A stretch of 64,000 nucleotides of DNA from Escherichia coli (GCF_016026235.1 NZ_CP065613.1), one strand, 5' to 3'; positions 28,746-29,336 are shown, counted from the stretch's first letter. Program-made: numbers and translations. The notes: generated by a model not told the origin, from the sequence alone.

Positions 28746-29336
28746 TATTTGTCCTTAAACCATAAATAATTAAAAATATAAACATTGCAATACATTGATT
28801 CAGTCAATAGCAATTATTTATACCCAGCCATTGAATAAGCTATCCGATCTAACTAACAAGAAAATAGGTCGCATAAGAAGATATTCTTTGGTGTGGGCGG
28901 ATGGTGATATTTTGTCTTTATTGTTTCAAATTATATTTACTTAACAGTGAATTAAGGAGCACTTAACATATTATCAAAAAGGTGAAATTTTGAGAGTTTA
29001 CTTATAAAAAACAAATAAAATGCTTAGAAAACATCTTTTACATAATTAAAATTTATGGGAAGTGTATACAAAAAAGACGATCTTAGATTAATTTTGAAAT
29101 TGTATTTTTTGAAGATATAATATTAAAGCATCACAAACAATATTAAATCAAGACACAAAAATATCATTTCTTTTTTACTGTTAATTGTTCCATTAGCTTT
29201 ATAATTTGTAAGAATATATTACAACTTAGTCTCATTTCATCAGAAATTAATAGGGAAGCAGAGGAAAGAGTGCGATGAAATCATCATCGCAGCATACCAA
29301 CTCCGTGAAGGGTTTTTAGTGAATTTATACTATTGC

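Follow-up and report, generated by a model that had tools for sequence, protein, structure and literature searches.

The spacer between sixA and yfcV in the analysed window, i.e. the whole stretch of 64,000 nucleotides of Escherichia coli DNA, is very probably a cis-regulatory region of the yfc fimbrial operon that is kept silent by H-NS, a role which is carried over to the window allele from its orthologs. The base composition, the anatomy, the pattern of conservation and the genus-level insertion of this spacer have been observed directly in the sequences compared here. The finding is real but largely known, because the K-12 counterpart has already been catalogued as a silent, H-NS-coated promoter island.

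Base composition and anatomy of the sixA-yfcV spacer

The spacer runs from the sixA stop codon (29389) to the yfcV start (28745), i.e. 28746-29388, and displays a GC content of 27.7% over its 643 bp. The preliminary description of this DNA had drawn attention to the interval 28746-29336 as about 590 bp of extremely AT-rich DNA upstream of a fimbrial major subunit gene, with many A/T tracts and without any ORF of 60 aa or more, and these statements are borne out by the present analysis. The interval (591 bp) has 26.9% GC, i.e. 73% A+T, with yfcV directly downstream of it. A windowed GC plot, the check named in that description, places it at the global minimum of all 591-bp windows across the 64 kb (mean 49.0%, sd 6.0%), about 3.7 sd lower than the mean, the second-lowest GC island of the window being at 31.1%. 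The minimum over 200 bp within the spacer, 19.5% GC, was recorded at 28987-29186. A/T tracts of at least 4 bases occur in the interval at 27 per kb as compared to 10.7 per kb in the 64-kb window, and TpA steps amount to 11.4% as compared to 5.1%. As for its boundaries, the interval lies inside the spacer but omits the right end of it (29337-29388, about 50 bp), where the sixA terminator hairpin is located.

The AT-richness is a property of the spacer and not of a foreign island, since the coding DNA of the yfc operon has a GC content of 44-54%. The annotation of yfcV is present in the corresponding locus of FDAARGOS_943, which is 100% identical to the window over 28600-29500. Beyond the usher gene, the operon continues with a chaperone and four more subunit genes down to 22339, followed by smrB; the usher gene of K-12 is a pseudogene, whereas the operon of the window is intact (Table 1). 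At the other end of the spacer, the sixA terminator has a folding energy of −22.1 kcal/mol (z −6.4) when read from the minus strand, as compared to −21.2 kcal/mol (z −7.6) for the plus strand, and because U-runs flank its stem on both strands, it can act in both directions.

The longest ORF inside 28746-29336 is of 49 aa with a TTG start (28795-28944, plus strand); it revealed no Pfam match and no Shine-Dalgarno sequence, and is frameshifted in K-12 through a 7-nt deletion. A 90-aa TTG ORF starting at 29333 was set aside, as it merely runs antisense through sixA.

Occurrences of the H-NS high-affinity motif TCGATAAATT in the spacer are in no excess over dinucleotide shuffles (2 vs 2.2; 13 vs 15.6), AA/TT helical phasing is not significant (p ~0.13) and a curvature signal is absent. 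With both motif and phasing at the level of chance, the case for H-NS rests on bulk AT content and not on specific sites or curvature. Motif enrichment and intrinsic curvature are supportive features of H-NS-silenced regions in general, and are not strictly defining ones.

Promoter-like sites, when counted with a simple sigma-70 PWM, number 9, 5, 11, 9, 20 and 13 per 100 bp across 28701-29300 (window mean 1.9), and the value of 20 at 29101-29200 is the peak of the 64-kb window; the promoter-island definition of the Ozoline group is based instead on PlatProm, with at least 8 starts per 100 bp over at least 300 bp. Composition accounts for this density, since a consensus scan yielded 7 sites vs 4.3 in shuffles.

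Table 1. Features of the yfc-sixA region, with positions counted from the first letter of the window
Feature	Position	Strand	Remarks
yfcV-U-S-R-Q-P-O operon	22339-28745	-	intact; yfcV first gene
Usher ORF	25461-28112		883 aa, intact
yfcV	28182..28745	-	187-aa ORF; Pfam Fimbrial PF00419, E 7e-17; major subunit of Yfc chaperone-usher fimbriae
Shine-Dalgarno AAGGA	28752..28756	-	6 nt before yfcV ATG
Candidate proximal promoter CTGAAT-17-TATATT	28775..28803	-	PWM 9.5 bits; prediction
Interrupted inverted repeat	28823..28897	-	arms CCCACACCAAAGAATA (28897..28882) and TATTCAATGGCTGGG (28837..28823)
Conserved block AGTAAATATAATTTGAA	28925..28941	-	identity 0.71 (six divergent alleles)
Sigma-70-like promoter TTGAAA-16-TATAAT (predicted)	29094..29121	+	11/12 matches, 15.1 bits; start near 29128
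Candidate distal yfcV promoter TTAATA-18-TATTAT	29117..29146	-	10.3 bits; start near 29110, leader ~365 nt
Conserved block TCTTGATTTAATATTG	29138..29153	-	identity 0.70; adjoins promoter core
Allele-specific filler, unalignable between families	29166..29344	.	hairpin and 14-aa ORF found only in window/O157 family
14-aa ORF with Shine-Dalgarno sequence	29275-29319	+	window/O157 family only
sixA intrinsic terminator	29345..29377	-	perfect 14-bp stem, U-runs on both strands
sixA	29389..29874	-	housekeeping phosphohistidine phosphatase; upstream of yfcV, same orientation

Occupancy and expression of the orthologous spacers

The spacer of K-12 is listed as promoter island 2453647_489, yfcV(-)/sixA(-), one of 78 such islands, which display an extreme density of promoter-like sites, are bound by RNA polymerase and covered by H-NS, and yield hardly any full-length transcript (PMC3661553). 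The H-NS flag of this island is 'K', standing for the ChIP data of Kahramanoglou (MG1655) and Oshima (W3110), and not 'A' (all studies), as it was not flagged in the ChIP-chip of Grainger (PMC3661553). ChAP-seq by Higashi 2016 recorded H-NS on yfcV and sixA in one or more of the strains SE15, SE11 and K-12; in the same work yfcV exhibits a dN of 0.128 and a dS of 0.597, far over those of typical core genes, and is tabulated as not predicted to be horizontally transferred (PMC4720273). Genomic SELEX revealed a peak of RpoD holoenzyme together with an HNS mark in the yfcV/sixA spacer of K-12, for which TTGAAA-17-TATAGT was proposed as the yfcV promoter (PMC3946193). A ChIP-seq peak at K-12 position 2454000, near the core, from a transcription-factor overexpression study was judged too non-specific to serve as evidence.

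The proposal of an H-NS-silenced promoter made in the preliminary description is thus supported on the ortholog, by H-NS ChIP and RpoD SELEX measured on K-12-type alleles, and the orthologous K-12 region, which was to be looked up in H-NS ChIP data, is occupied in the Kahramanoglou and Oshima sets, with ChAP-seq binding at the locus in one or more of SE15, SE11 and K-12. The outcome named there as speaking against the proposal, i.e. no H-NS occupancy and no promoter activity, does not apply to the ortholog, because both H-NS and RNA polymerase bind there.

Along with H-NS occupancy and RNA polymerase binding, rises in yfcV mRNA are also established for the K-12 or CFT073 orthologs. The transcript goes up with the Rho inhibitor bicyclomycin (PMC10980228), upon overproduction of BolA (PMC4337573) and upon overproduction of TosR in CFT073, by a log2 value of 5.2 (PMC5956150); in such overexpression or drug experiments the rise could be indirect. 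Wurpel 2013 classified Yfc as a core-associated fimbria, functional but cryptic, and the same paper, with reference to Korea 2010, describes the chaperone-usher (CU) fimbriae of commensal E. coli in general as cryptic and H-NS-repressed (PMC3559732).

For the window allele, we infer the same silencing by H-NS, and likewise which promoter is in use and what parts the leader and Rho play. Toward yfcV, the layout would start with the sixA terminator and about 180 bp of filler, continue with a core at 29094-29165 and a leader of about 365 nt, and end with the Shine-Dalgarno sequence and ATG. The tract, at 73% A+T and rich in TpA, would act as a platform for the nucleation and spread of H-NS, probably with StpA and Hha. 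The very high density of promoter-like sites would allow RNA polymerase to bind, but the enzyme would be occluded or trapped there. Once inside the leader, which is long, AT-rich and untranslated, a transcript would be exposed to Rho-dependent termination, and expression would need counter-silencing, such as loss of H-NS, inhibition of Rho, or an excess of BolA or of a PapB-family regulator such as TosR.

The spacer of the window resembles the K-12 island in its locus and genes, its length class (643 vs 680 bp), its GC content (28 vs 32%) and its dense promoter-like sites, and the two have the proximal ~190 bp and the promoter core in common. It differs from the island in that the overall identity is 64%, the distal half is unalignable by blastn, the K-12 yfcV promoter TTGAAA-17-TATAGT is degenerated, and the operon is intact while the usher of K-12 is broken. 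A long AT-rich upstream spacer and an operon cryptic in the laboratory are also features of the H-NS-silenced CU operons yad, sfm, yeh, ecp and fim, and the list of promoter islands includes yadN/folK, ecpR, yehD/yehE and fimE/fimA (PMC3661553). Unlike the fimB/E or ecpR systems, the yfc locus is without a linked regulator gene, and unlike the other H-NS-silenced CU operons, it has a near-normal coding GC content and belongs to the core of E. coli instead of being strain-specific.

Genus-level insertion and allele families

A synteny survey anchored on SixA covered 80 loci, with one genome per species. In about 70 non-Escherichia Enterobacteriaceae, among them Citrobacter, Salmonella, Enterobacter, Klebsiella, Kosakonia, Lelliottia and Kluyvera, sixA is followed directly by the convergent smrB across a gap of 20-255 bp with 45-75% GC. 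At this junction yfcV and yfcU were found only in Escherichia (E. whittamii and Escherichia sp. E1V33), with a spacer of 645-670 bp and 29-31% GC. The AT-rich spacer is present in E. albertii as well, where the contig ends at the yfcV start and the genes lie beyond view, while in Escherichia L009 the operon is absent and a remnant of 654 bp with 38% GC is left. Because sixA and smrB are adjacent elsewhere and yfc occurs only in Escherichia, the operon together with its spacer represents an old genus-level insertion between the two genes. The horizontal acquisition claimed earlier is therefore upheld at the level of the genus.

Four spacer families account for 5,363 (~99%) of 5,426 complete E. 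coli genomes, i.e. the K-12 type (3,073 genomes), the CFT073/Nissle type (1,228, ~23%), the PK8275/E2348-69 type (634) and the window/O157 type (428), and only 100 genomes of the last family match the window spacer at 95% identity or more. The compared E. coli strains share 96-99% identity in the flanking fadJ and sixA genes, and divergence starts at the sixA stop codon. Identity of the spacer to that of the window is 89% for O157, 64% for K-12, 61% for PK8275 and 55% for F1053. Alignment of the window spacer to the K-12 family (~3,000 genomes) by blastn is confined to its proximal 167-207 bp, at 78-82% identity, and the distal ~385 bp are unalignable between allele families. A blastn search of plasmids and phages gave no match to the distal part, and a mobile-element origin of it was rejected on this ground. 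An IS1 element is located inside the spacer in three genomes.

The gene yfcV diverges along with the spacer, with 67-85% nucleotide identity, and the allele block hence includes yfcV and is not a promoter swap alone. Horizontal regulatory switching denotes the occurrence of 'switched' intergenic regions between strains. The present locus is similar to it in that a 96-99% identical housekeeping flank abuts four barely alignable spacer families, and dissimilar in the divergence of yfcV with its spacer.

The GC content of every allele representative checked is 26-32% (26% in the CFT073 type and 32% in K-12), and the length of the spacer is 546-680 bp across all families and the sister species. 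That GC stays constant while identity drops to 55-64% argues, from these sequences, that composition rather than sequence is kept. Constant GC and length would fit selection, or H-NS-linked mutational drift, on a physical property.

Predicted promoters, conserved footprints and alternative explanations

Eight spacer alleles, including those of E. albertii and E. whittamii, were aligned with MAFFT, which may inflate positional agreement on diverged AT-rich DNA. Over the whole spacer, six divergent alleles have a mean pairwise identity of 0.45, with a few blocks at ~0.7 or more. The most conserved block (28738-28784) comprises the Shine-Dalgarno/ATG region plus TGTTTATATTTTTAAT, which includes the −10-like TATATT (28775-28780) of the proximal candidate promoter. 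At the Shine-Dalgarno sequence, none of the eight aligned spacers departs from TTTAAGGA, and seven of them keep the longer TTTAAGGACAAATAATG, the contig of E. albertii ending there. The 85 nt that precede the yfcV start codon (28746-28830) fold no better than shuffles do (z −0.19).

Two further conserved blocks, ATAGCTTATTCAATGGCTGGGTATAA (28818-28843) and CCCACACCAAAGAATATCTTCTTAT (28873-28897), form an inverted repeat with each other, the arms of which are ~44 nt apart and lie 78-152 nt upstream of the yfcV ATG. The repeat is independently predicted by RNAalifold with 12 pairs. In five alleles, pairing is retained in 95% of cells, a share that falls to 20-43% if one arm is shifted against the other, and at two pairs both partners have changed. 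These five sequences are suggestive of a stem in the leader RNA or of a paired protein-binding site. The conservation of AGTAAATATAATTTGAA is weak evidence by comparison with column shuffling, which reaches nearly the same level. The distance from the conserved promoter core to the yfcV ATG is 367-377 nt in all eight alleles, while the portion upstream of the core varies widely. The footprints and this constant distance point to a real regulatory architecture, as judged from the alignment.

The best sigma-70-like site on either strand of the window spacer is the plus-strand promoter of Table 1, which faces the sixA terminator and hence away from yfcV. The top antisense site occurs at the same alignment column in seven of the eight spacers (window, E1V33, O157, K-12, E. 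whittamii, PK8275 and E. albertii), with scores of 14.1-15.1 bits, which for every allele reach at least the 95th percentile of its dinucleotide shuffles; the K-12 version reads TTGGCA-18-TATAAT. By conservation, the −10 columns of the site rank among the highest 0.2% of 6-column windows. The aligned −35 region includes CAA as an invariant run, of a kind that only 0.7% of 3-column windows display, and the stretch between the two elements varies among the alleles. The CFT073/F1053 family has not retained the site. The −10 hexamers of this promoter (TATAAT, 29116-29121, plus) and of the distal yfcV candidate (TATTAT, 29122..29117, minus) overlap with an offset of 1 bp, which places the predicted divergent starts (29110, minus; 29128, plus) 18 bp apart. 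The SELEX promoter of K-12 aligns to 29130-29158, where it is degenerated to TTGTGT-17-TGTGAT in the window. A putative plus-strand RNA from 29128 to the sixA terminator would have ~256 nt; the 5' ends of the predicted antisense transcripts share AATCAAGAC, and TCTTGATTTAATATTG would coincide with the first 10-25 nt of the RNA.

It is conceivable, though unlikely, that transcription from this plus-strand promoter is what controls yfc, the act of transcription and not the ~256-nt noncoding RNA being effective. Such control might, with the same reservation, operate through competition with the overlapping yfcV promoter, a block of sixA read-through or remodelling of the H-NS filament. The rank of the site, its column-matched position in alleles as distant as E. 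albertii and E. whittamii, the conserved −10 and −35 columns with variable sequence between them, the overlap of the −10 hexamers and the both-strand terminator downstream favour this explanation. On the other hand, the promoter is lost in the CFT073/F1053 family with its ~23% of genomes, the column agreement may be inflated by MAFFT, and AT-rich H-NS targets are known, according to PMC3923964, as full of spurious promoters. For the RNA itself, the RefSeq record of MG1655 has nothing annotated in the spacer, and an Rfam scan of 27500-30500 with E up to 10 gave only sub-threshold, terminator-driven hits, the best being RefA9 (29.6 vs 49 bits) on the terminator. The body of the putative transcript is also unalignable between families and holds no small ORF conserved across the alleles.

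Bidirectional promoters with symmetric, overlapping −10 elements have reportedly been described by Warman et al. 2021 (Nature Microbiology). The window promoters resemble them at the sequence level in the 1-bp offset of the hexamers and the 18-bp separation of the predicted starts, and differ from them in that the starts are predicted and that the outward arm is much stronger and meets a terminator ~256 nt off. An extended account, which is rather improbable, would take the core as an ancestral bidirectional promoter that predates the split of E. coli and E. albertii, the dominant outward arm setting the OFF state of yfc via the ~256-nt noncoding RNA. The yfcV-directed promoter would then be occluded and the operon insulated from sixA read-through, and the length-constrained leader of ~370 nt, with its conserved stem or site pair, would add control by H-NS and Rho. 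The gene yfcV is a marker of uropathogenic E. coli, and if this account is true, loss of the outward arm in the CFT073-type allele, which carries that association, would explain lineage-specific expression of yfc.

It is likewise improbable that the spacer is mostly functionless filler, i.e. unconstrained DNA which remained after the operon was inserted and became AT-rich passively by AT-biased mutation, with the real promoter confined to the conserved 100-200 bp beside yfcV. The unalignable distal ~385 bp, the tolerance of IS1 in three genomes, the lack of H-NS motif excess and of a curvature signal, and the restriction of the common sequence of ~3,000 genomes to the proximal 167-207 bp are in its favour. 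What speaks against it is the narrow range of 26-32% GC and 546-680 bp over all families and the sister species, the gap in other genera having 20-255 bp and 45-75% GC, as well as the conserved distal core at 367-377 nt from the ATG and the binding of both RNA polymerase and H-NS to the K-12 spacer. The ~180 bp of allele-specific DNA next to the sixA terminator include a small hairpin at 29271-29291 (−12.6 kcal/mol, z −3.4), which is found in the window/O157 family only.

The preliminary description had further supposed that the spacer may hold a regulatory switch. This stands loosely, in the sense of a regulatory region, but no invertible element and no switch of the Dam/Lrp type was found. 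A true phase-variation switch, either a fimS-like invertible element or pap-like Dam/Lrp methylation, is very improbable here, even though many fimbrial operons are phase variable and the spacer contains several imperfect inverted repeats (e.g. 28919-28935 with 29200-29216) and two GATC sites (28846 and 29079). The best inverted repeat, with 15 matched bases, is equalled by 10.5% of dinucleotide shuffles, and the spacer has one orientation in all genomes examined. A pap-type switch was looked for as two conserved GATC within Lrp sites ~100 bp apart together with papI/papB-like regulators; in the window, 233 bp separate the two GATC sites, O157 lacks the distal one, PK8275 and F1053 lack the proximal one, and from smrB to fadJ only fimbrial genes and sixA are present, with no recombinase and no papI/papB-like gene.

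A hidden gene, i.e. a small protein or a decayed regulator gene, is equally far-fetched: the 14-aa ORF has a good Shine-Dalgarno sequence and lies between a strong predicted promoter and a terminator, but all other families lack it, 8 of its 45 nt are changed in O157, for the most part with an effect on the amino acid, and it is evolving freely; the 49-aa TTG ORF has the defects given above and the distal part lacks a plasmid or phage match.

The probable silencing of the yfc operon by H-NS on its AT-rich upstream tract confirms a textbook pattern for a cryptic fimbrial operon, and is useful mainly for annotation. The modest additions made here are the predicted, conserved outward-facing promoter, the constant spacing from core to ATG, and the structure of four families with a different predicted core in the uropathogen-type allele. 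The four diverged forms, along with the different predicted promoter layout of the uropathogen-type allele, offer a testable reason why lineages of E. coli might differ in the expression of Yfc fimbriae.

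Insertion, implied exchange and probable loss at the sixA-yfcV spacer

In at least three E. coli genomes that are not related to one another, copies of IS1 are present within the sixA-yfcV spacer, which fits the preference of IS1 for AT-rich targets. The insertions show that disruption of the distal part of the spacer is tolerated. The spacer of E. whittamii is a mosaic, in which the proximal ∼170 nt are almost the same as the window type and the distal sequence differs and cannot be aligned; the mosaic structure implies recombination breakpoints within the spacer.

The Escherichia genome labelled E. 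coli SCPM-O-B-8794 is without yfcV and yfcU. Its SixA is 97% identical, and a 654-bp remnant of 38% GC, which in part resembles decayed coding sequence, lies between sixA and smrB. The yfc operon of this genome was probably lost by secondary deletion. The CFT073 genome carries the invertase genes ipuA and ipuB, together with upaE, which encodes a phase-variable adhesin, ∼9–20 kb from the yfc locus; these genes could be misread as a yfc-linked recombinase, and are unrelated to the sixA-yfcV spacer.

Features of the spacer, the yfc locus and the other AT-rich islands
Feature	Sequence	Coordinates	Strand	Remarks
14-codon ORF, MKSSSQHTNSVKGF	window	29275-29319	+	between predicted strong plus-strand promoter and terminator
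yfc usher	window	25461-28112		883-aa ORF; compared with FDAARGOS_943 (L001) 7215-8501
AT-rich island, ranking second in the window	window	35969-37369		31-34% GC; fadL-mlaA interval
Low-GC island	window	50738-52682		evgS 5' end, evgA, evgA-emrK spacer (blastn, 100% identity)
Low-GC island	window	60694-62394		ypdI, yfdX, yfdX-frc spacer region (blastn, 100% identity)
IS1 in spacer	E. coli genome (L006)	3677-4374		also H36 (NZ_CP137696.1) and H95 (LR-24)
Mosaic spacer	E. whittamii (L007)	10487-11156
Locus without yfcV and yfcU	SCPM-O-B-8794 (L009)	10487-11147
ipuA, ipuB, upaE	CFT073 (L088)	41729-43675

The short reading frame and other AT-rich islands

The 14-codon ORF is preceded by a strong Shine-Dalgarno sequence, GAGGAAAG, and is confined to the window/O157 allele family, the O157 version being of 15 aa (MNSVSKRINSVKGFE). 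Its evolution is unconstrained.

The fadL-mlaA island matches a region of FDAARGOS_943 whose annotation is a disrupted hypothetical gene into which IS1 is inserted, and the corresponding K-12 position is another promoter island, yfdF/mlaA, on the published list (PMC3661553). The two low-GC islands further along display 32-37% GC, and the frc/yfdX spacer carries an HNS mark in the SELEX table (PMC3946193).

Integrity of the yfc operon

The yfc usher gene is frameshifted in K-12, and is split by IS600 in FDAARGOS_943, the spacer of which is 100% identical to that of the window. The usher ORF of the window is intact, and on this ground its yfc operon looks functional.
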